Counted from the stretch's first letter, positions 3,450 through 64,000 are shown. The stretch is DNA of 64,000 nucleotides from an uncultured Acidobacteriota bacterium (GCA_964383585.1 CAYLHQ010000023.1:2707-66706), one strand, 5' to 3'. The notes: generated by a model not told the origin, from the sequence alone. Numbers and translations: made by a program.

Positions 3450-4402
3450 AAGCGCTCGTCTTCGAGGACGGGAAGCCGCGCGTTCTCCTGCGCCCCGACC
3501 CCGATCCGCCGGAAGGGGAAGCGGTCGTGCGCGTCCACCTCGCCGGGATCTGCGGAACCGATCTCGAGATCGCGCGGGGGTACATGGCCTTCGACGGCAT
3601 CCCCGGCCACGAGTTCGTCGGCGTGGTCGAGCGGAGCGCCGACCCCGCGCTCGCGGGGCGCCGGGTCGTCGGGGAGATCAACGCCGCGTGCGGCGCCTGC
3701 CTCACCTGCCGCGCGGGACGCCCGCGCCACTGCCCGAACCGCACGGTGCTCGGAATCGCGGGGCGGGACGGCGCCTTCGCCGAGCGGCTCGCCCTCCCCG
3801 AGCGGAATCTCCACCTCGTCCCCGACGCGCTCCCCGACGCCGCGGCGGTCTTCACCGAACCGATGGCGGCCGCCTGCGAGATCGCCGAGCAGATCCCGGA
3901 TCTCGCCGGCGCGCGCGCGGCGATCGTCGGAGACGGGAGGCTCGCGCGCCTCTGCGCCCGGTTGCTCGCCCGGGAGGGTGCGCCCCCGGAGGTCTGGGGG
4001 AAGTACGAGGAGAAGCTCGTTCGTTTCGAACGGGACGGCCTTCGCACCCATCGGGAAGGCGCGGGAACGGACCGCACGTTCGACGTCGTGGTGGAAGCGA
4101 GCGGCTCTCCCGAAGGGTTCGACCTCGCCCTGCGTCTCGTGCGGCCGTGCGGCACCGTCGTCCTCAAGAGCACCTACCACGGCGCGGCGCCGATCGCGCT
4201 GGCTCCCGTCGTGGTCGACGAGATCCGCGTCGTCGGCTCGCGGTGCGGACCCTTCCCCCCCGCGCTCGCGCGGATCGGAGACGATCCGTCGTTCTTCACG
4301 TCGCTCGTCTCCGACGTGCTGCCCCTCGAGGAGGCGCGGGAGGCCTTCCGGAGGGCGTCGAGCCCCGACGCGTCGAAGGTCCTCTTCGACCTCCGCGCGT
4401 GA
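3446..4402 (+). CDS. Zinc-dependent alcohol dehydrogenase (MDR family)
   Basis: GTG start overlaps the upstream TGA. GICGTD, GHEFVG and CGACLTCRAGRPRHC zinc motifs. Confidence 0.92.
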   Translation: MKALVFEDGKPRVLLRPDPDPPEGEAVVRVHLAGICGTDLEIARGYMAFDGIPGHEFVGVVERSADPALAGRRVVGEINAACGACLTCRAGRPRHCPNRTVLGIAGRDGAFAERLALPERNLHLVPDALPDAAAVFTEPMAAACEIAEQIPDLAGARAAIVGDGRLARLCARLLAREGAPPEVWGKYEEKLVRFERDGLRTHREGAGTDRTFDVVVEASGSPEGFDLALRLVRPCGTVVLKSTYHGAAPIALAPVVVDEIRVVGSRCGPFPPALARIGDDPSFFTSLVSDVLPLEEAREAFRRASSPDASKVLFDLRA

Positions 4403-4499: not shown

Positions 4500-4562
4500 A
4501 TGGCGACGAAGAAGAAGGCCGCGAAGAAGAAGGCCACCAAGAAGAAGGCCGCCAAGAAGTAA
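4500..4562 (+). CDS. Lys/Ala-rich microprotein 1 (20 aa, MATKKKAAKKKATKKKAAKK)
   Basis: SD AAGGAGGTG just upstream, ATG...TAA, own promoter and terminator, paralog at 35523-35600. Confidence 0.8.
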   Translation: MATKKKAAKKKATKKKAAKK

Positions 4563-17000: not shown

Positions 17001-17154
17001 CGACGGTCACGCGTGCGTCGGCGAGCGGGACGCCGTAATCGAGGTCGACCACCACCCCGCGCAGCGCGCCGACCGCCCCCTCCTGGGAAAACGTCGGCCC
17101 GACGAAGGAGAGCGAGAAGGCGAGCGTGACGACCGGCCAGAGACGACGTGTCAC
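14044..17154 (-). CDS. TonB-dependent receptor with N-terminal carboxypeptidase-regulatory-like domain
   Basis: Signal peptide, GALRGVVVD...LADARV domain, plug (VRGLSDRYTGTTLNG, FTPDLQGDFSGGGVDI), beta-barrel, terminal ISLSVSYAW. GTG overlaps the upstream TGA. Confidence 0.93.
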   Translation of the reverse strand: MTRRLWPVVTLAFSLSFVGPTFSQEGAVGALRGVVVDLDYGVPLADARVTVVEAAQNRTTGPDGSFVFDRLPAGTYTVVFAKDGYGRATRTGVVVTPGKLSEIRAELSLEVVELEEMVVTGTDLLEGTEIALLEVRADAVTVQDAVSAELISKAGVGDAAGALRLVVGASVADGKYATVRGLSDRYTGTTLNGVRVPSADPRKRAVQMDLFPTGTIESVTVTKTFTPDLQGDFSGGGVDIVTKTIPEERIAKISVSGEYSNLATGEDAFLTYRGGGVSWSGFDNGDRALPDAAKAPPTDTPAPVNYSRIDDNRPGGTRITSEELARRIAIAEQYDAFTRSFTPVIGTSRDAPGAGFGLSGVWGDRWDTTSGLFGALAALTYSRKYDFYEGAVNDRVDVQVDPETNTPQFTRTAREDSRGTEELLIGALGTLDWEVGDDHHYSVRFVGNQSAEDEARFQTEDRGTTLQNQSLKYTQRSLASLQVHGGHRWPDLLGSSGARGFSGLEVDWFAAGNLTRQYEPDVRFFRNVFDPTTNTAFFEIGAIPDTLKTRRIFRDIHERSEQASLNLVLPFTQWSDSEGRLKAGLYHEGSTREYDQNSFFYAFQFSQPASNEQASINNTYGSAVLSGPDALWTDFFLAPERIGLSENRCEPPTTAFQNRTCAQPSQLLWYANRLAEDVIYDGDQTIRAAYAMGDLPLSSKVRLVGGARWEGTDISIVPINEAFGRVSVAFRNENGTYVVDPNVPQEEAVADVSDASWLPSLGVVWEVVPRMNLRASWSRTLARPTYRELAPVGTEEFLAGDSFLGNPDLRLSGVENWDVRWEWFRDEGDVLAASLFEKDITDPIELISFVAAGATYIQPVNYETGRAKGIELEARASLGRWVSWLRGIVVGGNYSRIDSEVDIPAEERQNLAVFGLGSDTRRLQGQPADVFNFNITYDNDRTGTSAGLFYNRTGDTLLTGASVGQDGGIPNVFDVAHAVFDVSVSQKIDGATVTLRGRNLLSPDRDSVYRLPTGEERLKTRRETPVLISLSVSYAW

Positions 17155-18311
17155 CACGGGTCCCCGAGTCCGTCGCGGAGCCGTTCGAGCCGGGACTCCC
17201 GATCCTGGGTCAGATCGAGGTCGAAGCGGGCCATCGCCCGGCAGATCTCGACGACGGCCAGGGCGCGCGGGCGGGCGTTTTCGAGGGCCGTGGCCCGCGT
17301 CAGAGCTTCGTCGAGCAGCCGCCCGGCCCGGGTATCGTCCCCCGCGGCTTTCCAAGCCCCGGCCAGGTTGGCGAGGACCGCCGGCTGTTCGATCACCGGA
17401 ACCCGGTCGACGGACGGATCCGCGGTCGCCAACAGGCGTCGGGCTCGGGCGGGGTCCCCCTGGGCGGCCCATCCGCGCGCGACCTCCGCGACGAGGGGCC
17501 CCTTGAGCGGTTCGCGATCGGAGATCTTGGTCGCGATCGTCTCCGCCTCTTCGAGGCACGCCCGAGCATCCCGCTTGCGGCCCGCCTTGCGATACTCGGC
17601 GGCGAGAACCGGAAGGTTCTCGGCGCGCTGCCAAGGGGCCAGCTCGGAGGCCGCGGCACGCCCGCCGTCGAGGAGCCTCCTTCGGTCCTTCTTCGAAAGT
17701 GTCCCGACGCGAGAGGCTTCGACATGACCGTGGAATTTCCACCAGGCCGACTCCGGGTCGAACTCGGCGTCGACACCCGCGAGGACCGCGAGGGCGTCGT
17801 CGACGCGTCCGTGGCGAGCGAGGGTGACCGCCGCCGCCGCCCCGGCCTTCCCGGAGTATTGCTTGTCGGACGCGGCCAGCTCGGCGGCGGCCTCCTGCGA
17901 GACCTCGGGATCCCCGAGGAGCGCGCGCGCCCAGAGGATGTGCGACTGGACCCGGAGCCCCTGCCATCCTTCCGCCCGGGAGCGCACCCCCTCCGCCTGC
18001 GCAAGGAGGACGCGAGCGTCGTCGGGACGGCCGCGCCGGGCCATCTCCGCGGCCACCTCGGCGTAGGCGACGCCCTGCCGCCAGCCCTCGACACGCCCCG
18101 CCTCGACGGCGGCCCCGTCCGGGTCCCCCGCCGTCGCCCGCTCGAGCACCACCGCCTCTTGGGCGCGGGCGCGGTCCTTCTCGTCGGACTCGATCGCGGA
18201 GGCGAACGCGAAACCCCAGTCGAGGGCCGAGCGCGGCCGGTCTGGCGGAACGGCCGCGGCGGCGGCGGTCAAGCAGAGCGCGACGGCGGCTGGAAACGAA
18301 CGACGACGCAT
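17151..18311 (-). CDS. Secreted alpha-helical repeat (TPR-like) hypothetical protein
   Basis: Signal-like MRRRSFPAAVALCLTAAAAA and Ala-rich helical repeats. Stop overlaps the receptor start. Confidence 0.7.
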   Translation of the reverse strand: MRRRSFPAAVALCLTAAAAAVPPDRPRSALDWGFAFASAIESDEKDRARAQEAVVLERATAGDPDGAAVEAGRVEGWRQGVAYAEVAAEMARRGRPDDARVLLAQAEGVRSRAEGWQGLRVQSHILWARALLGDPEVSQEAAAELAASDKQYSGKAGAAAAVTLARHGRVDDALAVLAGVDAEFDPESAWWKFHGHVEASRVGTLSKKDRRRLLDGGRAAASELAPWQRAENLPVLAAEYRKAGRKRDARACLEEAETIATKISDREPLKGPLVAEVARGWAAQGDPARARRLLATADPSVDRVPVIEQPAVLANLAGAWKAAGDDTRAGRLLDEALTRATALENARPRALAVVEICRAMARFDLDLTQDRESRLERLRDGLGDPW

Positions 18312-18344
18312 GGTGGGCTCCGTGACGAACATGGCGACGGATAC

Positions 18345-18471: not shown

Positions 18472-21400
18472 CTACGGGCAGACCACCCCGACCCGCTCGA
18501 CCCCGTTCGAGCGGTAGCCGAGGGTTCCGTTTCCGCAGGGATTGCTTCCACGGACGAGGTAGTGGAAGACCTGACCCGCCGCCGGAACGGTGGCGTCCGT
18601 CGCCTGGGTGTCCGCGTCGTTCTTCTCGACACAGGTCGCGATGGTGAAGTCCGACGCGGAGGTCGAACGGACGACGTCGTATCCGAGGTTGTTGAACGTG
18701 AGCCCGGTCCAGGAGAAGAGGTCCTTGCTCACGAAGGAAACCCCTTCGACTTCGTCCGGAACGGCGTTCGGGAAGTTGACGGTGTCGCACACGGGGAAGT
18801 ACCCGAGCCGCGACAGGGTCGACCAGCCGATCGCCCAGTTGTTCGGGTTCGCGAACGCTCCGCGGTAGGACGCCGGCTCGAAGAAGCCGTCGACCGGGGC
18901 CGCCTTCGCGTTCGTCTTGAGGCTGCTGCCGTCGGACGGCCTGGGGTCGATCACGACCGTCGGGTTCGGCTTGGTCGCGTCGGCGAGCGTTTCTCGGACG
19001 AGCGTTCGGATGGGAAGGGCCGAACCGCAGGTCAGGTACTCGTTCGCGAGCGAGGCGTTCGAGAACACGTCGAGGAACGACCGGCCCCGGTGGATCTTCC
19101 CGGTGTCCCCGCCGTAAGTCACGCCTTCATCCACGCAGGTCTCGCCCACGGGGCAGTCGGCGTTCGTGCAGCAGGCCTGTGTCGTCGTCACGCTGCACGT
19201 CGCGCCCGGCACCCGGTTCGGAATCGACTCCGACCCCGCGCACCACCACGAGTTGTTCGAGAAGAACAGCTCCTTGTCGTTCGCCTCGTCCGGAGCGAGG
19301 TAGTACACCCCGTCCGCCACGTAGTTCGTGTTGTACCGCTCGCCGGACGATCCGGCGCCCTGGCAGCTCGTGCCCGTCCCCTCGACCAGCATCGTCGCGC
19401 CGCCGAAATCGAGGAATGCGCTGTTGTAGTACCGCGCCCCGGCGTTGTCTCGAATGTGCAGTGCGGCGTTCTTCAGACGGTCGGTGTAGGTCTTCTGGCC
19501 CTGACCCACCATCGTCACGTTGTAGAAGACGGGGGTCGTCCGCGGGAGACTCGTGTCGGGCCCGTTCCCCCCGTCGTGCTCCCCGCCCTTGTCCGACTTG
19601 TCGGGACCGGGAAGGCCCTGGAGGATGAACGCGTATTGGACCTTCCCGCGCCACCCCTCGTCGTAGTCGAGGCCGTCGTCCCCGCAGGCCGCCCCGATGA
19701 AGTGCTTCAGATTGGCCGCCCCGCCGAACCACTCGACGCAGTCGTCCTTGTTCTGGACCACCTCGATGTAGTCGAGGTCGGTCTCCCGGCCCACCGCGCC
19801 GAGCGTCAGGCCGTTGATCTCGTTGTTGCCGCCGATCACGAACCCGCCGTAGCGGAGCGACGTGTAGGTCACCGCCCCGCTGTCGCCGTCGTCGCAGTTC
19901 CGGCCGTAGGGGCCAGGGAGGAACGCCGCGCAGTTCCCGTAGAGACCCTTCCCCGCGTTCGGGTCGAGACCCTCGATCTGGAACTCCCGCGTCGGGTCGG
20001 GACCGGCCGCCGTGTTGTTCGCCACGTACCCGTATCCGAGGAGGATCAGGCCGCCCCAGTTCGACGTGAGCGCACGGGCGGTTGCGGCGCTGTCGTAGGG
20101 AGCGGTCCCCGGGAAGCCCCGCACGTTGTCGTCGTCGAGGTCGGTGAAGACGATCGGCTTTTCCGCAGTGCCGCGGGCGACGATCTTCGCCCCACGGGTG
20201 ATGATGAGGGCACCGGGGTCCTTGGCGCCGGCGGAAGACTCCGGCTCGTTTCGGACGACCGTCCCGGGCTCGATCGTGAGCGTGGCGCCGTTCGTCACGT
20301 AGACCTGGTTCTGGAGGACGTACTCGTTGTCGGCGGTCCAGGTCTGGCTGCTGGTGATGTCGGCCGAGACGTTGACCTGAGTCCGCGGCGGGAAGTATCC
20401 GAGCCTCGAGAGGGTCGACCAACCTTCCGCCCAGTTCGACGTCCCGAAAGCGCCCCGGTAGGAGACCGGCTCGAAGAACCCGTCGACCGGCGTGGCCTTC
20501 ACGTTCGCGAGGAGAGGCGAACCCGTCGCCGGCCTCGGGTCGATCGAATTGACGGGATCCGGCTTGCTCGCGTCGAGCAGGGCCTCGCGTCCGAGAGCCC
20601 GGATCGGGAGGGCCGAACCGCAGGTCAGGTACTCGTTCGCGAGCGAGGCGTTCGAGAACACGTCGAGGAACGACCGGCCCCGGTGGATCTTCCCGGTGTC
20701 CCCGCCGTAAGTCACGCCTTCATCCACGCAGGTCTCGCCCACGGGGCAGTCGGCGTTCGTGCAGCAGGCCTGTGTCGTCGTCACGCTGCACGTCGCGCCC
20801 GGCACCCGGTTCGGAATCGACTCCGACCCCGCGCACCACCACGAGTTGTTCGAGAAGAACAGCTCCTTGTCGTTCGCCTCGTCCGGAGCGAGGTAGTACA
20901 CCCCGTCCGCCACGTAGTTCGTGTTGTACCGCTCGCCGGACGATCCGGCGCCCTGGCAGCTCGTGCCCGTCCCCTCGACCAGCATCGTCGCGCCGCCGAA
21001 ATCGAGGAATGCGCTGTTGTAGTACCGCGCCCCGGCGTTGTCTCGAATGTGCAGTGCGGCGTTCTTCAGACGGTCGGTGTAGGTCTTCTGGCCCTGACCC
21101 ACCATCGTCACGTTGTAGAAGACGGGGGTCGTCCGCGGGAGACTCGTGTCGGGCCCGTTCCCCCCGTCGTGCTCCCCGCCCTTGTCCGACTTGTCGGGAC
21201 CGGGAAGGCCCTGGAGGATGAACGCGTATTGGACCTTCCCGCGCCACCCCTCGTCGTAGTCGAGGCCGTCGTCCCCGCAGGCCGCCCCGATGAAGTGCTT
21301 CAGATTGGCCGCCCCGCCGAACCACTCGACGCAGTCGTCCTTGTTCTGGACCACCTCGATGTAGTCGAGGTCGGTCTCCCGGCCCACCGCGCCGAGCGTC

Positions 21401-22062
21401 AGGCCGTTGATCTCGTTGTTGCCGCCGATCACGAACCCGCCGTAGCGGAGCGACGTGTAGGTCACCGCCCCGCTGTCGCCGTCGTCGCAGTTCCGGCCGT
21501 AGGGGCCAGGGAGGAACGCCGCGCAGTTCCCGTAGAGACCCTTCCCCGCGTTCGGGTCGAGACCCTCGATCTGGAACTCCCGCGTCGGGTCGGGACCGGC
21601 CGCCGTGTTGTTCGCCACGTACCCGTATCCGAGGAGTATCAGGCCGCCCCAGTTCGACGTGAGCGCACGGGCGTCCTGAAGGTTGTCGTAGGGCGGAGTC
21701 CCGAGGCTCGAGCCGATGTTGTCGTCGTCGAGGTCGGTGAAGGTGATGGGAGCCAGGAGGGTCCCCAAGGCCTTGATTTTCGCCCCGCGCGTGATGATGA
21801 GCGCGCCGGGATCTTTCGCTCCCGGGGCCGATTCGGGATCTCCGCGGACGATCGTGCCCGGCTCGATCGTGAGCGTGGCACCGTTCGTCACGTAGATCTG
21901 CTTGTCGAGACAGTACTGTTTGTCCGCAGTCCACGTGGTGCTCGTGGTGATGTCGGCGGTGACCACCTCGTCGCAGTCCGGAATCAGCTGCGCATGGGCC
22001 GACACCGCTGCGGCGAGCCACAGCCCCGCGACCGCCATCGTCGCGACCAAGTATTTCCTCAC
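18472..22062 (-). CDS. Large secreted protein (about 1196 aa): two tandem copies of a beta-helix-like domain plus a C-terminal Cys-containing domain
   Basis: SD AAGGAGGAG before GTG 22062, signal peptide. Repeated motifs LTIEPGT, WGGLILLG, NEINGLTLGAVG, DDCVEWFGG and DDGLDYDEGWRGKVQY match a family I recall occurring beside TonB-dependent receptors. Confidence 0.85.
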   Translation of the reverse strand: MRKYLVATMAVAGLWLAAAVSAHAQLIPDCDEVVTADITTSTTWTADKQYCLDKQIYVTNGATLTIEPGTIVRGDPESAPGAKDPGALIITRGAKIKALGTLLAPITFTDLDDDNIGSSLGTPPYDNLQDARALTSNWGGLILLGYGYVANNTAAGPDPTREFQIEGLDPNAGKGLYGNCAAFLPGPYGRNCDDGDSGAVTYTSLRYGGFVIGGNNEINGLTLGAVGRETDLDYIEVVQNKDDCVEWFGGAANLKHFIGAACGDDGLDYDEGWRGKVQYAFILQGLPGPDKSDKGGEHDGGNGPDTSLPRTTPVFYNVTMVGQGQKTYTDRLKNAALHIRDNAGARYYNSAFLDFGGATMLVEGTGTSCQGAGSSGERYNTNYVADGVYYLAPDEANDKELFFSNNSWWCAGSESIPNRVPGATCSVTTTQACCTNADCPVGETCVDEGVTYGGDTGKIHRGRSFLDVFSNASLANEYLTCGSALPIRALGREALLDASKPDPVNSIDPRPATGSPLLANVKATPVDGFFEPVSYRGAFGTSNWAEGWSTLSRLGYFPPRTQVNVSADITSSQTWTADNEYVLQNQVYVTNGATLTIEPGTVVRNEPESSAGAKDPGALIITRGAKIVARGTAEKPIVFTDLDDDNVRGFPGTAPYDSAATARALTSNWGGLILLGYGYVANNTAAGPDPTREFQIEGLDPNAGKGLYGNCAAFLPGPYGRNCDDGDSGAVTYTSLRYGGFVIGGNNEINGLTLGAVGRETDLDYIEVVQNKDDCVEWFGGAANLKHFIGAACGDDGLDYDEGWRGKVQYAFILQGLPGPDKSDKGGEHDGGNGPDTSLPRTTPVFYNVTMVGQGQKTYTDRLKNAALHIRDNAGARYYNSAFLDFGGATMLVEGTGTSCQGAGSSGERYNTNYVADGVYYLAPDEANDKELFFSNNSWWCAGSESIPNRVPGATCSVTTTQACCTNADCPVGETCVDEGVTYGGDTGKIHRGRSFLDVFSNASLANEYLTCGSALPIRTLVRETLADATKPNPTVVIDPRPSDGSSLKTNAKAAPVDGFFEPASYRGAFANPNNWAIGWSTLSRLGYFPVCDTVNFPNAVPDEVEGVSFVSKDLFSWTGLTFNNLGYDVVRSTSASDFTIATCVEKNDADTQATDATVPAAGQVFHYLVRGSNPCGNGTLGYRSNGVERVGVVCP
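19016..21673. repeat. Intragenic direct repeat: about 1065 bp (19016-20080 vs 20609-21673), offset 1593 bp, essentially identical
   Basis: Identical translations in several frames of the ORF track. One mismatch seen (20044 vs 21637). Flanks diverge abruptly. Confidence 0.93.
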
Positions 22063-22217
22063 GACCTCTCCTCCTTGGGAACGCTTGTAGGGTTTCGTCG
22101 GCTGCATTGGACCCCTGCCCGGCGACGGAGCGCGGAAGACCCGGTGACTGTTCGGTGAAGAATCGGATCGAACCGACCGCCGCCCGCGGCATCCTGGCCG
22201 ACCGTTGCTTCCGGCTC

Positions 22218-32901: not shown

Positions 32902-33892
32902 GAGGCAAATCAACGTGGCCGCGAGGTTGTTGGGGGATGGAACGCTCGAGGTGGCGCGAAGGGTGGGGAGGACTCGCGCCGCGCAGGAGGCCGAAGTTGC
33001 GGTGGGTGTGACAGTTCCAGCGCCACGCCCGTGGCAACCGACCCGAGACCGCGCTTTCGGGACGGGGCGGGACCGGTACCCGGAGGACCCAACGCAACTT
33101 CGGCCCGGCCGATCGCGACCCGATTCGCCGGCGACCGGCAGGCGGAAAGCGCGGGGAACGCGCACGCCCCAACCCACAATCTCGCGGCCACGTTGGAGGC
33201 AAATCAACGTGGCCGCGAGGTTGTTGGGGGATGGAACGCTCGAGGTGGCGCGAAGGGTGGGGAGGACTCGCGCCGCGCAGGAGGCCGAAGTTGCGGTGGG
33301 TGTGACAGTTCCAGCGCCACGCCCGTGGCAACCGACCCGAGACCGCGCTTTCGGGACGGGGCGGGACCGGTACCCGGAGGACCCAACGCAACTTCGGCCC
33401 GGCCGATCGCGACCCGATTCGCCGGCGACCGGCAGGCGGAAAGCGCGGGGAACGCGCACGCCCCAACCCACAATCTCGCGGCCACGTTGCACGGAATCCA
33501 ACGTGGCCGCGAGGTTGTTGGGGGATGGAACGCTCGAGGTGGCGCGAAGGGTGGGGAGGACTCGCGCCGCGCAGGAGGCCGAAGTTGCGGTGGGTGTGAC
33601 AGTTCCAGCGCCACGCCCGTGGCAACCGACCCGAGACCGCGCTTTCGGGACGGGGCGGGACCGGTACCCGGAGGACCCAACGCAACTTCGGCCCGGCCGA
33701 TCGCGACCCGATTCGCCGGCGACCGGCAGGCGGAAAGCGCGGGGAACGCGCACGCCCCAACCCACAATCTCGCGGCCACGTTGCACGGAATCGCCGACTT
33801 GCGCTCCATTTCCGCGTCCTCGGACGGTCCGGCTGCCCGGACGGCCCGTCCGAAGGCGGACCGTCCCCGCCCACAACCTCGCGGCCACGTTG
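32902..33892. repeat. Array of three identical 285-bp elements with 20-bp terminal inverted repeats (period 294 bp), plus a solo fourth right-end repeat; MITE/REP-like
   Basis: Units 32911-33195, 33205-33489 and 33499-33783. Ends caacgtggccgcgaggttgt...acaatctcgcggccacgttg, separated by 9-bp spacers. Solo acaacctcgcggccacgttg at 33873-33892. Confidence 0.9.
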
Positions 33893-33949
33893 GTTTGAAT
33901 CGGGCCTCCTCAGGACCCATATTCCGGACGACCGAGGGAGGGAAACCGA

Positions 33950-35427: not shown

Positions 35428-35522
35428 GGGTGGCGATTTGGGGAGGTCCCCAGATCTTGAGCCCAGGAACTCCCGGCCACGGGCTCGAACGAATGCACGG
35501 GAGAGGCAAGGAGTCCGACACG

Positions 35523-35600
35523 ATGGCCACCAAGAAGAAGGCCGCCAAGAAGAAGGTCGCGAAGAAGAAAGTCGCCAAGAAGAAGGCTGCCAAGAAGTAA
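35523..35600 (+). CDS. Lys/Ala-rich microprotein 2 (25 aa, MATKKKAAKKKVAKKKVAKKKAAKK)
   Basis: SD AAGGAG upstream, same MATKKKAAKKK start as 4500-4562, own promoter and terminator. Confidence 0.8.
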   Translation: MATKKKAAKKKVAKKKVAKKKAAKK

Positions 35601-36232: not shown

Positions 36233-37012
36233 ATGCGTGAAGACTCCGGAGAGACCGCGCTCGGGCAGGATGCGCTGACCGCGTACCTGCGGAGGATCCG
36301 CCGCATCGATCTCCTCACGCGGAGCGGGGAGTTCCGGCTCGCGACCCTTCAGAGGCTCGATCCGGCATCGCCCGAGGCGAAGGCCGCGCGGGAGCGCCTC
36401 GTCGAGTCGAACCTCCGCATCGTGGTCAAGCTCGGCCACGAGTACCGGGGACGGGGAGTCTCGGTCGACGACCTGATCTCCGAGGGAAACCTCGGACTGA
36501 TCGAGGCCGCGGCCCGTTTCGACCCCTCGCGAGGGGTGCGCTTCGTGACCTACGCCGTGTGGTGGGTGCGGAAGTTCATGCTCGGCGCGATCCGGAGGAG
36601 CGCGAGGCAGCGGTTCGCCCCGATGTCGGGCACGGATGCGTTCGCGCCCGACATGCGCAGCTCCGCGGAGCACGATTTCTCTTCGCTACGGCGGGCGGTC
36701 CTCTCCCTCGACGGCGGCGCCGCGCCGGGGGCAGGCCCGCGACGGGGCCAGGAGTCGGCGACTTCGGAGCGCGCTCCCGATCCCGAGACCCACGCGGTCG
36801 ACCAACAGATGGAGGGAGCGCTCCGGAGAATCCTGGGGAAACTGCCCGCGCAGGAGCGACGGGTCTTGACCGCCCACTACGGACTCGACGGGTCGCCACC
36901 CCGCACACTCCAGCAGATCGGGGACGAGCTGGGGATGACGCGCGAGCGCGTGCGGCAGATCGAGTTACGGGCGAGGGGCCGGGTGCTGCGACTGCTCAGA
37001 CGAGGCCTTTAG
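36233..37012 (+). CDS. Short RNA polymerase sigma-70 factor (RpoD/RpoS/RpoH-like)
   Basis: Region 1.2 LTAYLRRIRRIDLLT, region 2 LVESNLRIVV...DLISEGNLGLIEAAARFD...FVTYAVWW, region 4 TLQQIGDELGMTRERVRQIE. Confidence 0.9.
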   Translation: MREDSGETALGQDALTAYLRRIRRIDLLTRSGEFRLATLQRLDPASPEAKAARERLVESNLRIVVKLGHEYRGRGVSVDDLISEGNLGLIEAAARFDPSRGVRFVTYAVWWVRKFMLGAIRRSARQRFAPMSGTDAFAPDMRSSAEHDFSSLRRAVLSLDGGAAPGAGPRRGQESATSERAPDPETHAVDQQMEGALRRILGKLPAQERRVLTAHYGLDGSPPRTLQQIGDELGMTRERVRQIELRARGRVLRLLRRGL

Positions 37013-37155
37013 GGAAGGGGGACAGGCACCGCCCCTCGGGCGGAGCCAATCCCCGGCTCAGGGAAGGGGGACAGGCACCGCCCCTCGGGCGGAGCCAGTC
37101 CCCGGCTCAGGGAAGGGGGACAGGCACCGCCCCTCGGGCGGAGCCAGTCCCCGGC
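37011..37155. repeat. Three tandem 49-bp REP-like palindromic units between convergent genes
   Basis: Units start at 37011, 37060 and 37109: agggaagggggacaggcaccgcccctcgggcggagcca(a/g)tccccggctc. Each unit folds as a hairpin. Confidence 0.88.
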
Positions 37156-37156
37156 G

Positions 37157-38551
37157 TCATCCCACTTGCTTGTTCTTCGTCCACCTCGGGTTCTTGATCT
37201 CGTACTTCGCGACCTTGTAGTTCATGACGCGCGACGAGATCCCGAGGAACTGCGCGGCGTCCTTCTGGACCCAGTTGCTGATGCGGAGCGCCTCGAGGAT
37301 CGCCTGCCGCTCCAGCTCGTCGAGGGGAATACCGTTCGGCGGGAGACGCAGGTTGAGCGACGCGACGTTGTCGCCGCCCCCGGCGCGATTCTCCGACCCG
37401 ACGTGCAGGTCCTCCTCGGTGACGTAGCGCCCCTCGGCCATCAGCACGGCCCGCTCGACGGCGTTTTCGAGCTCGCGGATGTTCCCCGGCCAGGTGTGAC
37501 GCTTCAGCGCCCGGACGGCGCTCGGGTCGAGGCCGCGGACGTCCTTGTGCAGTTCCCGCCCGAACCTCTCGATGAAATGGGTCGCGAGGGGGACGATGTC
37601 TTCCTTCCGCTCCCGGAGCGGCGGAACGGTGATCGTCACGACGTTGAGCCGATAGTAGAGGTCCTCGCGGAACTCGCCGCGCTGGATCGCGTCCTCGAGG
37701 TTCTTGTTGGTGGCGGCGACGAGGCGCACGTCGACCTTGACGGTGCGCGAGCCTCCGAGCCGCTCGAACTCGCGCTCCTGGAGGACGCGCAGCACCTTCG
37801 TCTGCGTCGACGCCGTCATGTTCCCGATCTCATCGAGGAACAGGGTCCCCTCGTTCGCGAGCTCGAACCGCCCGATCCGCTGCCGATCGGCTCCGGTGTA
37901 GGCCCCGCGCTCGTGGCCGAAGAGTTCCGACTCGAGGAGGTTCTCGTGCAGAGCCGCACAGTTCATCTTCACGAACGATCGGTGCGCGCGGCTCGAGTTC
38001 CGGTGGAGCGCCTCGGCGACGAGTTCCTTCCCGACCCCCGTCTCCCCGAGGATCAGGACGGTGGCGTTCGACCGTGCGACCTTCTCGATCGTGCGGAAGA
38101 TCTCTTTCATCTGGGGACTCTCCCCCACGATGTTCTCGAACGAGGGAACCAGGGAGTTTCGGTCCTGGGCCTGGAGCCGGGCGAGGAGCCTCCGGTGCTC
38201 GAGCGCCTTTTCGACCTTCAGCTCGAGTTCTTCGAGGTCGAACGGCTTGAGCACGTAGTCGTGAGCCCCCGCCTTCATCGCCTCGACCGCCGACTCGACC
38301 GTCCCGTAGGCGGTCATCATGATCCCGACCGTCCCGTCGTTGATCATCTTGCAGCGCTTGAGGACGTCGAGCCCGCTGCGCTCGGGCATCTTGTAGTCGG
38401 TGACGAGGACGTCGAAGACCTCCTCCTCGAGGTGGCGGACCGCCTCGGTGCCGTCCGGGGCCTCGGTGACCTCCCAGCCCCGCTCGCGGAACGCCGTGGC
38501 GATCCCTTCGCGGAGGGTCGGCTCGTCCTCGGCCACGAGAATCTTCTTCAT
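37157..38551 (-). CDS. Sigma-54-dependent response regulator (NtrC/AtoC family)
   Basis: Canonical receiver (AEDE, VTDYKMP, KPF), GETGVGKE, GAYTGA, WPGNIREL, HTH. Confidence 0.95.
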   Translation of the reverse strand: MKKILVAEDEPTLREGIATAFRERGWEVTEAPDGTEAVRHLEEEVFDVLVTDYKMPERSGLDVLKRCKMINDGTVGIMMTAYGTVESAVEAMKAGAHDYVLKPFDLEELELKVEKALEHRRLLARLQAQDRNSLVPSFENIVGESPQMKEIFRTIEKVARSNATVLILGETGVGKELVAEALHRNSSRAHRSFVKMNCAALHENLLESELFGHERGAYTGADRQRIGRFELANEGTLFLDEIGNMTASTQTKVLRVLQEREFERLGGSRTVKVDVRLVAATNKNLEDAIQRGEFREDLYYRLNVVTITVPPLRERKEDIVPLATHFIERFGRELHKDVRGLDPSAVRALKRHTWPGNIRELENAVERAVLMAEGRYVTEEDLHVGSENRAGGGDNVASLNLRLPPNGIPLDELERQAILEALRISNWVQKDAAQFLGISSRVMNYKVAKYEIKNPRWTKNKQVG

Positions 38552-39732
38552 CGAATTGCCCCCTCGAGCGTCCGCACGGCGACCGGCAGGCGGACGGTGA
38601 AGACCGTCCCCTCTCCCTTCCGGCTGTGTACGTCGATGAGTCCGCGGTGGGAGTCCACGATCTTCCGGGCCATCGCGAGGCCCACCCCGGACCCCTGCTT
38701 CTTGGTGGTGAAGAACGGATAGAAGAGCTTGTCGGCGTGCTCCTCCGCGATCCCGCATCCGGTGTCGGCGACACGGACCACGGCGTAGCGATCGAATCCC
38801 GTCCAAGGGTCGGCGGGCGCGGGGCCCGCCGGCCGGTACGGCACGGTCGGTCCTGCAGGGGCCGGCACCGATCCGGTCTCGACCGAGAGCGTCCCCTCGT
38901 CTCCCATCGCCTCCATCGCGTTGAGAAAGAGGTTCTCGAAGACCTGGCGCAGTTGGCCGCGGTCCATGAGCATCTCGCCCGGGTCGGCGCCGTACGCGCG
39001 GACGACGCGGATCCCCGGCCGCCCGCACCGTCCGACGGCGGTCGCGAGCGCCTCGTCGAGCACGTCGGTGAGCCGAGCCTCGGAGAGGTTGAGCGACACC
39101 GGACGGACGAACTCCAGGCTCGACGTGATCGTCCGGTTGAGGCGGCGGACTTCCGCGATGATCTTCTCGAGGAGATCGCGCTCGGCCCCTTGCGCCCCCA
39201 TCCTCCGCTTCAGGAGCGAGCAGGAGACCTCGATCGAGGCGAGCGGGTTCCGGATCTCGTGCGCGAGATTCGCGGCCATCTGCCCGAGCGCCGCGAGCCG
39301 GTCTTTGAGCCGCTCCTGCTCCTCCTTGTGCTCGACGTGGGTGAGATCCTTGAAGAAGATCGCAGCACCCTCCACGGAGCCGTCTTCCGCGCGGACGAGC
39401 GACAGGGTGAACCCGATCGTCTTCCCGCAATCGGATCGACTTCGCACGTCGATCTCGGCGCGGTTCGGCAGGCTCGCCATCGCGAACGACTCGCGGAGGA
39501 TCTGGGCGAGTTGCGGGTGACCGGCGAGGACCTCCTCGACGGAGGCCCCCTCGCGTGTCCCGGGTTCGAGTTCGAGGATCTGCCGGGCGTGGTCGTTGAG
39601 CATCACGACCGTCCCGGCCCGATCGATCGTCAGGATGCCGCAGCGCATCCCCTCGATCAGCCGGCGGTGGAATGCCCCCGTTCCCTGTCCGTCCGGAAGG
39701 GGTTCCGCCACACGTCGAACCGGAGACTTCAC
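38548..39732 (-). CDS. Cytoplasmic PAS-domain sensor histidine kinase
   Basis: PAS region, AHEIRNPLASI, NLFLNAMEAM, DTGCGI, FFTTK, GSGVGLA. No obvious TM helix. Start uncertain (GTG 39732 or 39711). Confidence 0.9.
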   Translation of the reverse strand: MKSPVRRVAEPLPDGQGTGAFHRRLIEGMRCGILTIDRAGTVVMLNDHARQILELEPGTREGASVEEVLAGHPQLAQILRESFAMASLPNRAEIDVRSRSDCGKTIGFTLSLVRAEDGSVEGAAIFFKDLTHVEHKEEQERLKDRLAALGQMAANLAHEIRNPLASIEVSCSLLKRRMGAQGAERDLLEKIIAEVRRLNRTITSSLEFVRPVSLNLSEARLTDVLDEALATAVGRCGRPGIRVVRAYGADPGEMLMDRGQLRQVFENLFLNAMEAMGDEGTLSVETGSVPAPAGPTVPYRPAGPAPADPWTGFDRYAVVRVADTGCGIAEEHADKLFYPFFTTKKQGSGVGLAMARKIVDSHRGLIDVHSRKGEGTVFTVRLPVAVRTLEGAIR

Positions 39733-39845
39733 GCGCCGAGCCCCTCCCCACCCGCGATCGATCGACCCTTCGCCGGCCTTACCTCCGGCGCCCGCGACAA
39801 AATCTAGGCACCGATCGCCCCGAGGCAAGGCGGGCGGGAATGTCG

Positions 39846-40409
39846 CTACCGTTGCCCCGTGACGACGCCGGTTTCCCAGGTGATACCGGCCTTCGACTGC
39901 GGCGGTGTCTGCCCGTCGAAGAGCGCCGCGTTCTCGAAGGTCAGGCGGAAGCTCCCCACCTCCTTGACCCGGAAGCTGAGGCGGATCATCGGTGCGGGCG
40001 TCGAGACGTTCACCGTACCGACGTTCCCGTTCCTGGAGACTCCGGCCACGACGCGCCCCGCGACCGGGTTCTCGACCTGGTAGGTCGGGGTGTGGCTCCC
40101 CTGCTCGAAGACGGTGCCGGCGGAATGGCCGAGATAGGTCAGCTTCGTCGAGTCGAAAGTCACGTCGAAGGCCGCGGCGTAAAGCCCCGTCGTCTGCGAG
40201 ACGTTGACGTGGACCGTGACCGAGTCCCCGCTCTTCGAACCTTCCGCCATGGCGACCGTGTTCGAGCCGGGAGACGGCTCGTCGGCGACGAAGGCTGCGA
40301 GGAGCGGAGGGGTCGTCACCCCGCCCGAGGAATCGCCGCCTCCTCCGCCTCCGCAGGCGGTCGCGACGGCGAGGAGAGCGAACGAACACGCGGTCGAAAA
40401 GCGCCCCAT
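39846..40409 (-). CDS. Cohesin-domain lipoprotein
   Basis: Lipobox VATAC plus Gly linker. GDSVTVHVNV..TGLYAAAFDVTFDSTKLTY...IRLSFRVKEVG...LTFENAALFD matches the cohesin pattern. Confidence 0.75.
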   Translation of the reverse strand: MGRFSTACSFALLAVATACGGGGGGDSSGGVTTPPLLAAFVADEPSPGSNTVAMAEGSKSGDSVTVHVNVSQTTGLYAAAFDVTFDSTKLTYLGHSAGTVFEQGSHTPTYQVENPVAGRVVAGVSRNGNVGTVNVSTPAPMIRLSFRVKEVGSFRLTFENAALFDGQTPPQSKAGITWETGVVTGQR

Positions 40410-40426
40410 GGAATTCCCCTCTCGGT

Positions 40427-41263
40427 TCAGCGGAGGTTGGCGGGACAGGCTGAAACCGCCCAGCCCGCGCCGTCCCAGCAACGCCCCATGTTGCTGGCAA
40501 GATAAGCCAGATCCTGCCCGTCAACCCAGCCGTCCCCGTCGAAATCGAAGTCGGGATCGTAAAGGGCGGTGCCCTCGTTCCCGCCGAACATCCGGGCCAT
40601 CCAGACGGTGTCCTTGCCGTCGAGGCGGTTCCGCGTCGCCGTGTCGGATTGATTCACGTCGAAGCGGGCCGGGTTGACGACCACCGTGAAGGCGTCCGAC
40701 TTCTGTCCGAAGACGTCGTCGGGGTTCGCGACGGTGACGTCGATCGCCCCGATTCCCGCGGGCCTCACGTTCGCCGCGGTCGGTTCGACCGTCGCGAGCA
40801 CCTGCATCCGGCCGCACGCGAGAACCTGGGTCGAGGCGAGGCGGACATGGGGGTTGTCGAACTCGATCACCGCGCCGTTCTGGAAGTTCGTGCCCGTGAG
40901 CTCGATGACGAGCTGGTCCCCCTGCTTCGCGGACGAAGGGGTCGCCGCGGTGACCACCGGACGCGGCCAGCCGGCGATCTCCTGGGAGAACTGGTCGGAC
41001 TCGCCGGCGGAGTTGTACGCCTTGACCGCGACGTACCAGGTCGTGCAGTCCTGGAGATTCTGGAGGGTCGCGCTCGTGGAGGACGTTTGAAGGGGATTCG
41101 ATCCGTACACCCCTGACTGCGTCCCGTAGTAAACGCGATAGCCGTTCGCTCCGGGAACGGGGTCCCAGGCGATCGAGATCGTCCCCGCGGCGGCGGGGAG
41201 CGCCGCGGCGAGGAGGAAAGCGGTGCCGGCGATCACGGCGATGCGCGGGGGGAAGCGTCGCAT
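40427..41263 (-). CDS. Secreted FnIII + IPT/TIG + dockerin-like domain protein
   Basis: Signal peptide. FnIII (ISIAWDPVPGANGYRVYYG...YVAVKAYNSAGES), IPT (PVVTAATP...LTGTNF), paired Ca-binding repeats DVNQS...LDGKDTVWMARMFG and DFDGDGWVDGQDLAYLASNMG. Confidence 0.78.
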   Translation of the reverse strand: MRRFPPRIAVIAGTAFLLAAALPAAAGTISIAWDPVPGANGYRVYYGTQSGVYGSNPLQTSSTSATLQNLQDCTTWYVAVKAYNSAGESDQFSQEIAGWPRPVVTAATPSSAKQGDQLVIELTGTNFQNGAVIEFDNPHVRLASTQVLACGRMQVLATVEPTAANVRPAGIGAIDVTVANPDDVFGQKSDAFTVVVNPARFDVNQSDTATRNRLDGKDTVWMARMFGGNEGTALYDPDFDFDGDGWVDGQDLAYLASNMGRCWDGAGWAVSACPANLR

Positions 41264-41325
41264 CCGTCGGTCTCCTTTTCGGTCCGGTCCTTGGCGCCCC
41301 GGGGGAGGCGCTCGGAGCCCTGCAG

Positions 41326-41341
41326 GGCAAGGTGGGTGCCA
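41326..41341 (-). promoter_or_regulatory. Sigma-54 (-24/-12) promoter
   Basis: Minus strand TGGCACCCACCTTGCC, a match to TGGCAC-N5-TTGC, about 65 bp upstream of ATG 41263. Confidence 0.8.
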
Positions 41342-41592
41342 GGAGGCCGGCCGTGCCGACAATGCCGACGCGATTTCCTAAGTCCCCCTATTTCCATGAG
41401 TTAGGAACGAGCCGCGAAGCGGAACCGGGCCCTGACCGGGTCCTTCGACGTACGCTCGGGTACGGATCTGTAATTCCTACCGGCTGGCTGTAATTATTGG
41501 ATGGTTGCGGCGCCGTCGGCATGCCTCGAATCCGTCCCAATACGGGCGTGCTAGGATCTGCCGATTCCGGCCCTTTTTCAGGAGAACCCCCG

Positions 41593-60890: not shown

Positions 60891-63800
60891 ATGTACCGAA
60901 TCGTCCTGCGCTCCTCCACCCCCCCGCGGGGATCGCGTGCGCGGCGCCTCGTCGCCGTGCTCGGAGGGCTGTCTCTCGCGATCTTCCTCGTCGCCCCCGC
61001 GCTCGCGGCGGACACGGACGGGGACGGCGTCGACGACGCGTTCGACTGCGCGCCGAACCTTCGCGCGACGTGGACGACACCCGGAGAGACACCCGATCTT
61101 CGCTTCGACGCGTCGGGGGCGCTGACCTGGAACGGAGCGCCTCAGGCGCACGTTTACAACGTCTACCGCGGCTCGGTCGCCGCGGACGACCCGTTCTCGT
61201 ACAACCACGCGTGCCGCGCGCCTCAGCTCGCCACGCGCGAGACGGTCGACGCCGAAGACCCGCCTCCCGGCGTCCTCTTCTACTACGTCGTCGGAGGCCG
61301 GAACGGCTGCGGCGACGGGACCCTCGGGGAAGGGACGGCCGGCCCGAGGCCGGACGGCGCGGCCTGTGCGGTCGACCCGCTCGCCGACTCCGACGCGGAC
61401 GGCATCCCCGACCTCGACGACGTCTGCGCGGCAACGGCGGACGCCGCGCAGGAAGACGCCGACCTCGACGGGGTCGGCGACACGTGCGACGTGTGCCCCT
61501 CCGCAGGCGACCCCGCGCAGTCCGACGCCGACGGGGACGGCGTCGGCGACGCCTGCGACCCCTGCCCGGACGACCTCAACAACGACCCCGACGCCGACGG
61601 GCTCTGCGACGTCGCGGACAACTGCCCGGCGGTCGCGAACGCCGATCAGGCCGACGCCGACGCCGACGGGTTCGGAAACGTCTGCGATCCGTGCCCCGTC
61701 GATCCGGGGAACGACGCCGACGCCGACGGAGTCTGCGCGGACGCCGACAACTGCCCGGCGATCTCGAACGCCGGCCAGGAGGACGCGGACGGGGACGGGA
61801 TCGGAAACGTCTGCGATCCGTGCCCCCTGGACCCCGCGAACGACACGGACGCCGACGGCGTCTGCGGCGACGTCGACAATTGCCCCGCGATCGCGAACCC
61901 CGGCCAGGCCGATCTCGACGGCGATGCGCAGGGAGACGCCTGCGACCTCGACGACGACGGGGACGGCGTTCCCGACCTCGCCGACAACTGCCCCGCGATC
62001 GCGAACGCCGGCCAGGAGGACGCGGACGCCGACGGAACGGGCGACCCCTGCGACGCATGCCCCAACGACCCCTCCGACGACGTCGACGCCGACGGCGTAT
62101 GCGGCCTCGACGACAACTGCCCCGCCGTCGCGAACGCCGACCAGGCGGACCTCGACGGCGACGCGCAGGGAGACGCGTGCGACCTCGACGACGACGGGGA
62201 CGGGGAACCGGACGATTCGGACAACTGCCCGGCGGTCGTGAACGCGGACCAGGCCGACGCCGACGCCGACGGGATCGGCGACGCCTGCGACGCGTGCGGG
62301 AACGATCCCGGGAACGACCTCGACGGCGACGGTCTCTGCGGCGATTCCGACAACTGCCCCTCCGTCGCGAACCCCCTCCAGACCGACACCGACGGAGACG
62401 GGTTCGGCGATCCTTGCGAACCCCGGCGGGTGAACTTCAGCCCCGCCGCGTCGGCGATCCCTCCCGACTTCGTCAAGGACGACGGAAGCGCCTTCTCCGG
62501 GGCGCGCCGGTACGGGTGGAACGCGGCGGTCGAAACGCGCGAGACGGTCAGTCCGGAACCGCTCGAGCGGGATACCTTCGCGCTCGTGACGGTCGAGCGG
62601 CGGTGGACCTTCGAGCTCCCGCCGGGCGACTACGACGTCCGGGTCGTCGCCGGGGACGCGGTCGATCCGCGAGGCCCCCACCGGGTCGAAACCGAGGGTG
62701 TCCCGGCGATCGCGGACGTTGCGACCGCGGCGGGCGAGTTCCTCACGGAGACCCGCCGCGTCCGCGTGCGGGACGGCCGGCTCGACTTCCGGGTCGGGGG
62801 GAGCGCGGGCGACACCGCTCTCGACTACACCGAGATCTTTGTCGCTCCCGACACGAAGCCCTCGCTCCGCTCGATCAACTTCGAGCCTTCGACCTCGGCG
62901 ACCCCCGCGGGGTGGGAGCGGGACACGGGGGCGGTCTTCTCCGCCGCGCGGGGCTACGGCTGGAGCGAAACGCCGGCGATGCGGGACCGCGCACGCGACG
63001 TGCCGCAGGTGCTCGACACCTTCGCGTTCACCTCGGCGCCGAAGACGTGGGATCTCGTCGTCCCGAACGGCTTCTGGGACGTCTGGCTCTCGATCGGCGA
63101 CACCGACTTCCCGCACGCCCGGCAGCGGGTCCTGCTCGAGGGCGTTCCCGTCATCCCCGCGGCCGACACCGTCGCCGGTCAGTTCGTCGAGGTTCGGACG
63201 GGCGCCGAGGTCGCGGACGGGCGCCTGTCGGTCACGATCGGCGGCAACATTCAGAACACCTGCCTCAACTACGTCGTCGTCGCCCCGGCCGCTCCGGACG
63301 CCGACGGCGACGGGTTGGCGAACGAGTCGGACAACTGCCCGTTCGTCACGAACGCCGACCAGGCGAACGCCGACGGTGACGCCCTCGGAGACGCGTGCGA
63401 CGCCGACACCGACGGCGACGGGACCGAGAACTTCCGGGACAACTGTCCGGCCACTCCGAATCCGACCCAGACCGATTCCGACGGCGACGCGTTCGGCGAC
63501 GCCTGCGACAACTGCCCGGCCGTGGCGAACTCGAGCCAGGCGAACGCCGACGGCGACGCCTTCGGCGACGTCTGCGACGCTTGCCCGGCCGACCCGCTGA
63601 ACGACGCGGACGCCGACGGCGTGTGCGGCAATGTCGACAACTGCCCCGCGGTTGCGAATGCCGAGCAGGGGAATGGCGACGGAGACGCGTTGGGCGACGC
63701 CTGCGACGCTTGCCCCGCCGACCCGTTCAATGACGCGGACGCCGACGGCGTGTGCGGCAATGTCGACAACTGCCCCGCGGTCGCGAACGCCGACCAGCTC

Positions 63801-64000
63801 AACGCGGATGGTGACGCCTTCGGCGACGCCTGCGACGCCTGCCCCAACGATCCGTTGAACGACGCGGATGCCGACGGCGTCTGCGGCAACGCCGACAACT
63901 GCCCGGCGGTCGCGAATGCCGACCAGGTGAACACGGACGGCGATGCCCTCGGCGACGCGTGCGACGCTTGCCCCGCCGACCCGCTCAACGACGCGGACGC
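60891..64000 (+). CDS. Large secreted thrombospondin type-3 (TSP3) repeat protein with an N-terminal Cys-containing domain and two galactose-binding-like domains; runs off the window
   Basis: Translated by hand from ATG 60891. Signal region, at least 13 DNC motifs in DxDxDG..D.CDxC repeats (often 129-bp period). Central tandem domains NF.P....P..W..D.G..F...R.YGW...G.YDV....GD. Confidence 0.88.
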   Translation, partial: MYRIVLRSSTPPRGSRARRLVAVLGGLSLAIFLVAPALAADTDGDGVDDAFDCAPNLRATWTTPGETPDLRFDASGALTWNGAPQAHVYNVYRGSVAADDPFSYNHACRAPQLATRETVDAEDPPPGVLFYYVVGGRNGCGDGTLGEGTAGPRPDGAACAVDPLADSDADGIPDLDDVCAATADAAQEDADLDGVGDTCDVCPSAGDPAQSDADGDGVGDACDPCPDDLNNDPDADGLCDVADNCPAVANADQADADADGFGNVCDPCPVDPGNDADADGVCADADNCPAISNAGQEDADGDGIGNVCDPCPLDPANDTDADGVCGDVDNCPAIANPGQADLDGDAQGDACDLDDDGDGVPDLADNCPAIANAGQEDADADGTGDPCDACPNDPSDDVDADGVCGLDDNCPAVANADQADLDGDAQGDACDLDDDGDGEPDDSDNCPAVVNADQADADADGIGDACDACGNDPGNDLDGDGLCGDSDNCPSVANPLQTDTDGDGFGDPCEPRRVNFSPAASAIPPDFVKDDGSAFSGARRYGWNAAVETRETVSPEPLERDTFALVTVERRWTFELPPGDYDVRVVAGDAVDPRGPHRVETEGVPAIADVATAAGEFLTETRRVRVRDGRLDFRVGGSAGDTALDYTEIFVAPDTKPSLRSINFEPSTSATPAGWERDTGAVFSAARGYGWSETPAMRDRARDVPQVLDTFAFTSAPKTWDLVVPNGFWDVWLSIGDTDFPHARQRVLLEGVPVIPAADTVAGQFVEVRTGAEVADGRLSVTIGGNIQNTCLNYVVVAPAAPDADGDGLANESDNCPFVTNADQANADGDALGDACDADTDGDGTENFRDNCPATPNPTQTDSDGDAFGDACDNCPAVANSSQANADGDAFGDVCDACPADPLNDADADGVCGNVDNCPAVANAEQGNGDGDALGDACDACPADPFNDADADGVCGNVDNCPAVANADQLNADGDAFGDACDACPNDPLNDADADGVCGNADNCPAVANADQVNTDGDALGDACDACPADPLNDAD

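Follow-up and report, generated by a model that had tools for sequence, protein, structure and literature searches.

We analyzed a 64,000-nucleotide stretch of DNA (the window) from an uncultured Acidobacteriota bacterium (GCA_964383585.1 CAYLHQ010000023.1:2707-66706), focusing on a group of four genes on the minus strand. The window is ~70% G+C and contains 51 genes, as determined by codon-usage-based gene calling. An earlier reading of the same DNA (the original prediction) had described one run of genes for a secreted protein with a dockerin-like region, a cohesin-like lipoprotein, a PAS kinase, and an NtrC-type activator. All four genes are present where they had been placed, within 37157-41263 (Table 1). 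We refer to them as A, B, HK (histidine kinase) and RR (response regulator). We found that B contains a genuine cohesin, that the C-terminal tail of A resembles a dockerin, that HK and RR make up a sigma-54-dependent two-component system, and that a sigma-54 promoter lies upstream from A. The genes, their order and the promoter are conserved in Polarisedimenticolia.

Table 1. Positions of the genes, protein domains and regulatory elements at the locus (GA, gathering threshold; nucleotide positions are those of the window).
Feature	Position	Strand	Description
Gene A	40427-41263	-	secreted protein, 278 aa
A, signal peptide	aa 1-27	-	hydrophobic, ends A-x-A-G; Kyte-Doolittle hydropathy 2.15 at aa 8-26
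A, fn3 domain	aa 26-99 (41188-40967)	-	Pfam, 31 bits (GA 25)
A, Ig/IPT-like domain	aa 100-195 (40966-40679)	-	second beta-sandwich
A, dockerin-like domain with Cys-loop tail	aa 196-278 (40678-40430)	-	C-terminal 83 aa
Gene B	39846-40409	-	cohesin protein, predicted lipoprotein, 187 aa
B, lipobox	Cys19 (40355-40353)	-	LAVATA-C19-GGGGGG, then Gly-rich linker
B, cohesin module	aa 35-187 (40307-39849)	-	Pfam Cohesin; AlphaFold2 model and Foldseek
HK	38548-39732 (or 39711)	-	soluble PAS-HisKA-HATPase_c histidine kinase; GTG start at 39732 or 39711
RR	37157-38551	-	NtrC-type response regulator: REC, sigma-54 AAA+, HTH_8
Sigma-54 (-24/-12) promoter	41327-41341	-	TGGCACccaccTTGC, ~64 nt 5' of the ATG of A
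Candidate upstream activator site	41459-41474	.	AT-rich palindrome ATTAC-N6-GTAAT; minus strand ATTACAGATCCGTACC
Internal sigma-70-like promoter	39801-39828	-	TTGCCT-N16-TAGATT, in the B-HK gap
Tandem hairpin array	37011-37155	.	3 x 49-bp units, one GC-rich hairpin each

The cohesin of B was recognized both by profile and by structure. B scored 39.1 bits against PF00963 (GA 24.1; E 1.1e-9; aa 52-160), and this family was found in 16 of 16 close homologues of B. The AlphaFold2 model of B has a mean pLDDT (predicted local distance difference test score) of 82.5, with values >90 over most of aa 30-187. When this model was compared to the PDB using Foldseek, all of the top 50 matches were cohesins (types I, II, III or non-cellulosomal), each at a probability of 1.00; the TM-score, normalised to the target, reached 0.73. 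B thus has the nine-stranded beta-sandwich (jelly-roll) fold of cohesins. These matches include the non-cellulosomal cohesins 2xdh from Archaeoglobus fulgidus and 2jh2 from Clostridium perfringens. Cohesin modules are limited to one per locus. When conservation was mapped onto B, the positions that stood out were mainly glycines and core residues, along with E102, R126 and R147, a pattern that is not decisive for an interface. Based on the lipobox, B is predicted to be a lipoprotein. Cys19 is nearly invariant and the poly-Gly linker is conserved among B homologues; in some orthologues, the lipobox is the canonical L-A-G-C. The window contains genes for a TonB-dependent receptor, ExbB, TonB and a porin, indicating that the host is a diderm cell.

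A has no catalytic domain detectable with Pfam or Foldseek. Its second beta-sandwich scores weakly with Pfam TIG (12.7 bits) and passes NCBIfam CoaZ_rpt_PGGG (33.8 versus a cut-off of 30). The AlphaFold2 model has two confident beta-sandwiches and, with it, Foldseek returned only generic tandem fn3/Ig proteins. The C-terminal dockerin region of the model has pLDDT <50 and therefore the model does not confirm the dockerin fold itself.

Several properties of the A tail point to dockerins. The tail is strongly conserved within the family and consists of two segments followed by a conserved C262...C273. The first segment reads D202-V-N-Q-S-D-(TATRN)-R-L-D-G-K-D218 and is followed by a helix. The second contains a canonical loop, D240-F-D-G-D-G-W-V-D-G-Q-D251, also followed by a helix. 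We built a dockerin profile from 28 A-family tails. Its best match in the PDB was the dockerin 2y3n_B (E 1.8e-4), aligned without gaps over 54 residues that include both segments; calmodulins came next. Of the 28 A-family tails, 24 matched PF00404 at E<=10, with a best E of 2.4e-4. When the profile was compared to 1.84 billion representative proteins, its matches with E 1e-9 to 1e-15 included C-terminal modules that pass Pfam Dockerin_1 (P0189, P0213, P0243, P0248, P0258 and P0284). Because these searches tie the tail to bona fide dockerins, we treat it as a divergent homologue of dockerins in which one loop is atypical.

HK and RR belong to the NtrC family of sigma-54-dependent two-component systems, as judged by their domains and the overlap of the two genes (the stop codon of HK and the start codon of RR share ATGA). 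RR scored 248.8 bits for Sigma54_activat, 98 bits for Response_reg and 37.9 bits for HTH_8, and its sigma-54 loop reads GAYTGA. RR is below the cut-off of every named NCBIfam equivalog, including AtoC (490.7 versus 714) and PrsR (TIGR02915; 406.5 versus 502.6). HK is below those for AtoS (256.9 versus 646) and PrsK (TIGR02916; 82.8 versus 300).

The sequence upstream from A has the features of a promoter controlled by such a system. It matches TGGCAC-N5-TTGC exactly, is oriented toward A, and is the only match in the window with one mismatch or fewer. TGGCAY-N5-TTGC was present 5' of A in all of the first 11 loci compared and in 32 of 34 in a larger set. Farther upstream is an AT-rich palindrome whose center is 125 nt 5' of the -24 element. 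With up to two mismatches allowed, 9 of the first 11 loci have this palindrome 121-127 nt upstream, compared to 0.39 expected for shuffled sequences; in the larger set, 18 of 30 loci have it at this position. No second convincing site was found in the window. A -24/-12 promoter with a site for an enhancer-binding protein ~100-150 bp upstream is typical for NtrC-family systems. The palindrome is a candidate activator site, and because the genes are linked, we infer that the adjacent RR is the activator of the A-B promoter. RR would then also be the protein that binds the palindrome. The proposed coupling of A and B expression to the kinase and activator is backed by the conserved promoter and the palindrome.

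We also found a likely boundary within the four genes. The stop codon of A and the start codon of B are separated by 17 nt in the window. In contrast, the gap between B and HK is about 115-135 nt and contains a sigma-70-like element (one match in the window; 0.03 expected). TTGCCN-N16/17-TAGATT was present at the same position between B and HK in 22 of 25 loci and fits a sigma-70-type promoter for HK and RR. We rejected a terminator-like hairpin between B and HK because it overlaps the -10 of this promoter-like element. Since HK and RR have their own conserved promoter in the gap, the simplest reading is that A and B are a sigma-54 target operon and that HK and RR are a separate regulator unit. 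Thus, the view that all four genes are co-transcribed agrees with the arrangement within each pair but not with the promoter between the pairs. The sigma-54 promoter, the palindrome and the internal promoter are all new relative to the original prediction.

This arrangement also bears on the idea that A and B are extracytoplasmic co-sensors that feed a signal to HK. Accessory lipoproteins of sensors exist in other systems, and the A and B genes are linked to a two-component system. However, the sigma-54 promoter puts A and B downstream of RR, as a target and not an input. In addition, HK has neither a transmembrane nor a periplasmic segment (maximum Kyte-Doolittle hydropathy of 0.96 in a 19-residue window), so direct contact with A and B is impossible. 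We consider a co-sensor role highly improbable.

We examined 55 related loci; gene order was counted after removal of duplicates. There are >275 full-length homologues of A, and those with names are from Acidobacteriota, Candidatus Polarisedimenticolaceae and Acidobacteria bacterium Mor1 (subdivision 22). In Polarisedimenticolia, the gene order A-B was found in 33 of 34 loci with a dockerin-bearing A; for B-HK and HK-RR, the counts were 21 of 23 and 15 of 15. That is, the four-gene order, which had been set in advance as a test of the original prediction, is conserved. A and B are tightly spaced or overlap, as in L001 (by 4 nt). Identity to the proteins of the window was highest for RR (74-86%), followed by HK (57-80%), A and then B. 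The fn3-IPT paralogues that do not have a dockerin (L052, and L053, which is 921 aa with FG-GAP-like repeats) have no cohesin neighbor. Both this loss and the tight, nearly invariant adjacency of A and B argue for docking of A onto B. One locus, L010, has an extra gene between B and HK (2124-3560) with a GDSFTFG motif that reads, unscanned, like that of an SGNH/GDSL-type hydrolase.

Based on these results, we lean toward the view, at somewhat better than even probability, that the four genes are a dedicated regulatory-plus-effector module of Polarisedimenticolia in which HK and RR switch on A and B, and A docks onto lipid-anchored B. HK and RR would be expressed from their own sigma-70-like promoter. 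Phosphorylated RR would bind the palindrome ~125 nt 5' of the sigma-54 promoter and turn on the A-B bicistron. Because there is no strong terminator after B, transcription could read through into HK and RR, which would provide positive feedback. A would be exported via Sec, and B would be exported and lipidated. The dockerin-like tail of A would then dock onto the single cohesin of B, presumably with calcium, and tether the fn3-Ig stalk of A to the envelope membrane as a fixed, probably one-to-one pair. Since the only export signal on A is a Sec signal, the complex may be periplasmic. The module probably functions in assembly of the envelope or glycan layer or in adhesion, and not in degradation of polysaccharides.

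Several observations weigh against this view. The original prediction proposed profile scans for both modules. The cohesin of B passes its scan, but the dockerin of A does not, and homology was recognized by profile comparison instead. Full-length A had no Dockerin_1 match in Pfam at E<=1. The isolated tail scored 13.1 bits against PF00404 (E 0.12), below the GA of 22.9. The first calcium loop (D202...D218) is atypical in having a conserved 5-residue insertion, and the helices predicted at 217-228 and 249-262 have pLDDT <50. The palindrome is weak or absent in ~40% of loci. The plus strand at 2076-3449 encodes another enhancer-binding protein for sigma-54, in which the receiver domain is weak, and this protein is a possible alternative activator; no sigma-54 promoter was found near its gene. 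Two loci (L029 and L044) have A and B with no HK-RR pair found downstream. In L044, B is followed by an open reading frame (ORF) that, read by eye, looks like an acyltransferase-3-type membrane protein. In L038, a distant A orthologue (897-2092) is followed ~290 nt later by HK, with no B between them. The dockerin in L038 is altered at otherwise invariant positions (for example, W246 to Q), and the contig is short (2.5 kb), so misassembly is possible. Last, conservation within A is highest in the dockerin (mean identity 62%), and the cohesin is the least conserved component (mean 46%). Such a difference would not be expected if the two co-evolved tightly, and it allows for a different ligand of the dockerin.

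It is possible, then, that A does not dock onto B. The dockerin-like calcium module would recognize a conserved envelope glycan or another protein, B would be a beta-sandwich lipoprotein that acts independently, and both would be accessories of the neighboring glycan pathway. The sub-threshold score and atypical loop of the dockerin are in line with this possibility. So is the finding that, with the A-tail profile, calmodulin-type EF-hands come close to dockerins in score, and so is the constant presence of glycan genes next to the module. Such independence is difficult to reconcile with the almost invariant adjacency of A and B, the missing cohesin gene beside dockerin-less paralogues, a B fold that matches cohesins alone, and profile searches that connect the A tail to true dockerins. 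We keep the possibility of another ligand open because the dockerin is more conserved than the cohesin and because L038 does not have B, and we consider it unlikely. Docking of A onto B is the reading that we favor.

The original prediction went further and proposed a plug-in platform for other dockerin proteins. In its broad form, a cohesin lipoprotein at the cell surface would be a display hub that captures A and other dockerin-tagged proteins encoded elsewhere. In cellulosomes, several dockerins can bind to a cohesin. Among the database matches of our profile, it was common to see a non-cellulosomal dockerin on a lipase, a protease, or a PKD or FG-GAP protein; examples include GDSL lipases with C-terminal dockerins (P0248, P0258 and P0284). 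A dockerin that is better conserved than the cohesin would also suit a hub. However, each locus has a single cohesin module, and a regular-expression census found no other dockerin-type calcium loop in the 64-kb window. Furthermore, among the best 150 representative proteins, the dockerin subtype with the Cys-loop tail is restricted to the fn3-IPT proteins of the A family. These three findings make the platform a weak proposal. The fixed, tightly spaced pairing of A with B also points away from it, and we found no sign of surface exposure or of an outer-membrane secretion route. We regard a hub as decidedly unlikely and favor a dedicated A-B pair.

A cohesin together with a dockerin could also indicate a minimal cellulosome-like system for degradation. 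The presence of these two modules is the sole point in its favor. The Pfam scan of 44 proteins from the window found no glycoside hydrolase, as originally described, and also no carbohydrate-binding module (CBM) and no scaffoldin with multiple cohesins. A has no catalytic domain, and the neighboring genes are biosynthetic. With one cohesin and no glycoside hydrolase or CBM, this reading is effectively refuted within the window, and we give it next to no probability.

The polysaccharide cluster that had been described as divergent from the four genes is a long and real glycan-biosynthesis cluster, as determined with Pfam. It includes genes for DegT, an acyl-AMP ligase, an acyl carrier protein, a PglD-like acetyltransferase, Bac_transf, Lar_N, GT2 and GT4, methyltransferases, an epimerase, an AsnB-like enzyme, an LPG_synthase_TM protein and a carbamoyltransferase. 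The suggested link between the module and matrix production did not extend beyond adjacency. The gene directly upstream varies among loci (PMT_2, PIG-L or formyltransferase), yet glycan genes are again found there. Matches to the sigma-54 consensus with two mismatches occur in the window at a chance-level count. There is no sign of sigma-54 dependence for the glycan cluster. Directly after the cluster is a gene (60891-64000) that runs off the end of the window and encodes a thrombospondin type-3 repeat protein of >1035 aa (PF02412, 262 bits). This protein is encoded by DNA repeats of 69, 129 and 237 bp. The repeats in this protein bind calcium and are distinct from dockerin loops.

The module is similar in some respects to known systems and different in others. 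Non-cellulosomal cohesins and dockerins are widespread, according to a passage of PMC10066038 that cites Peer et al. 2009. As in the A. fulgidus protein (2xdh) and the toxin and glycosidase complexes of C. perfringens (2jh2, 2vo8 and 2w1n), single modules here appear to serve protein-protein assembly outside of cellulosomes. In the Foldseek results for B, these cohesins have ranks 2, 6, 9, 11, 28 and 32. Unlike those pairs, the one described here consists of two small dedicated proteins from one operon, with a predicted lipid-anchored cohesin in a diderm cell. It also differs in having an inserted first dockerin loop and a disulfide-type tail, and a sigma-54 promoter with a linked two-component system. 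To our knowledge, and based on literature searches, these four features have not been described for known non-cellulosomal pairs. The likeness to the anchoring scaffoldins of the Clostridium thermocellum cellulosome (OlpA, OlpC and SdbA; 3ul4, 4dh2 and 2bm3, all among the structural matches of B) is that a cell-bound cohesin tethers a dockerin protein. Those scaffoldins are attached to Gram-positive walls by S-layer homology (SLH) domains and recruit scaffoldins laden with enzymes. In contrast, B has a lipobox, its proposed partner is non-enzymatic, and there are no carbohydrate-active enzymes of the cellulosome kind.

HK and RR have the same domain architecture as AtoS/AtoC, ZraS/ZraR and PrsK/PrsR, and a -24/-12 promoter with an upstream site. 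PrsK/PrsR is linked to PEP-CTERM and exopolysaccharide loci. The pair described here differs from AtoS/AtoC and PrsK/PrsR in scoring below the equivalog cut-offs, and from all three systems in that its kinase is soluble with a single PAS domain and its proposed target is a cohesin-dockerin pair. In our literature searches, we found neither an A-B-HK-RR operon nor a cohesin-dockerin pair under sigma-54 control.

Other features of the window are outside of the module or at its edge. The tandem hairpin array downstream of RR (3.0 copies with 98% match by Tandem Repeats Finder; RNA fold z-score -5.2) exactly fills the convergent gap from the stop codon of RR to the stop codon of a gene for a sigma-70-family protein. 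No further copy of the 49-bp unit was found in the window. The array is absent from L001, where RR and the sigma-70-family gene abut. It is likely a bidirectional terminator array. The window had no matches in Rfam.

A second array, at 32911-33792 between a cyclophilin gene and pilT, has three tandem copies of a 294-bp unit that are 99% identical, with a solo end copy at about 33870-33893. The unit has long terminal inverted repeats (CAACGTGGCCGCGAGGTTGT...ACAATCTCGCGGCCACGTTG), strong folds on both strands (z -4.3 and -5.3) and no match in Rfam. L005 has only a ~155-nt gap at this position. The array could be an element like a miniature inverted-repeat transposable element (MITE) or a structured RNA array. 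A tiny Lys/Ala-rich ORF at 35493-35600 on the plus strand (MATKKKAAKKKVAKKK...) resembles a histone H1 tail and is derived from a 15-bp repeat; a similar repeat (AAGAAGAAGGCCGCC) is at 4502-4559. A phosphate-related block spans 4589-32204. It encodes a CHAD protein, Ppx/GppA, porin O/P, a periplasmic phosphate-binding protein, two long PstC/PstA-like permeases, an ABC ATPase, and a PhoB-like regulator with a PhoR-like kinase, interleaved with genes for ExbB, TonB and a TonB-dependent receptor. Next to a gene for a TonB-dependent receptor are two minus-strand genes, at 18472-22107 (1211 aa) and 17151-18332 (393 aa), with good coding signal and no Pfam match at E<=1e-4.

Among bacteria and archaea that do not degrade cellulose, many have scattered cohesin and dockerin modules, for most of which no role is known. 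The module described here is a minimal case, with one cohesin and one dockerin in one operon, a clear sigma-54 on-switch and class-wide conservation. There is also a complete genome of a named strain, Acidobacteria bacterium Mor1 (CP011806). Together, these properties make the role of such pairs outside of cellulosomes directly testable. Through this module, an acidobacterial sigma-54 two-component system that would otherwise be an orphan gains a defined candidate target, and a cohesin with a predicted natural lipid anchor could be of use in display engineering of diderm bacteria. It is possible, although we think it quite unlikely, that B is a signal-controlled docking site in the envelope, perhaps exposed on the surface and perhaps with more than one dockerin partner. 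If so, the time at which a cohesin-dockerin scaffold is built next to a surface glycan would be set by the two-component system and sigma-54, and, among diderm bacteria, this would be the first description of a cohesin-dockerin assembly that is regulated and non-degradative.

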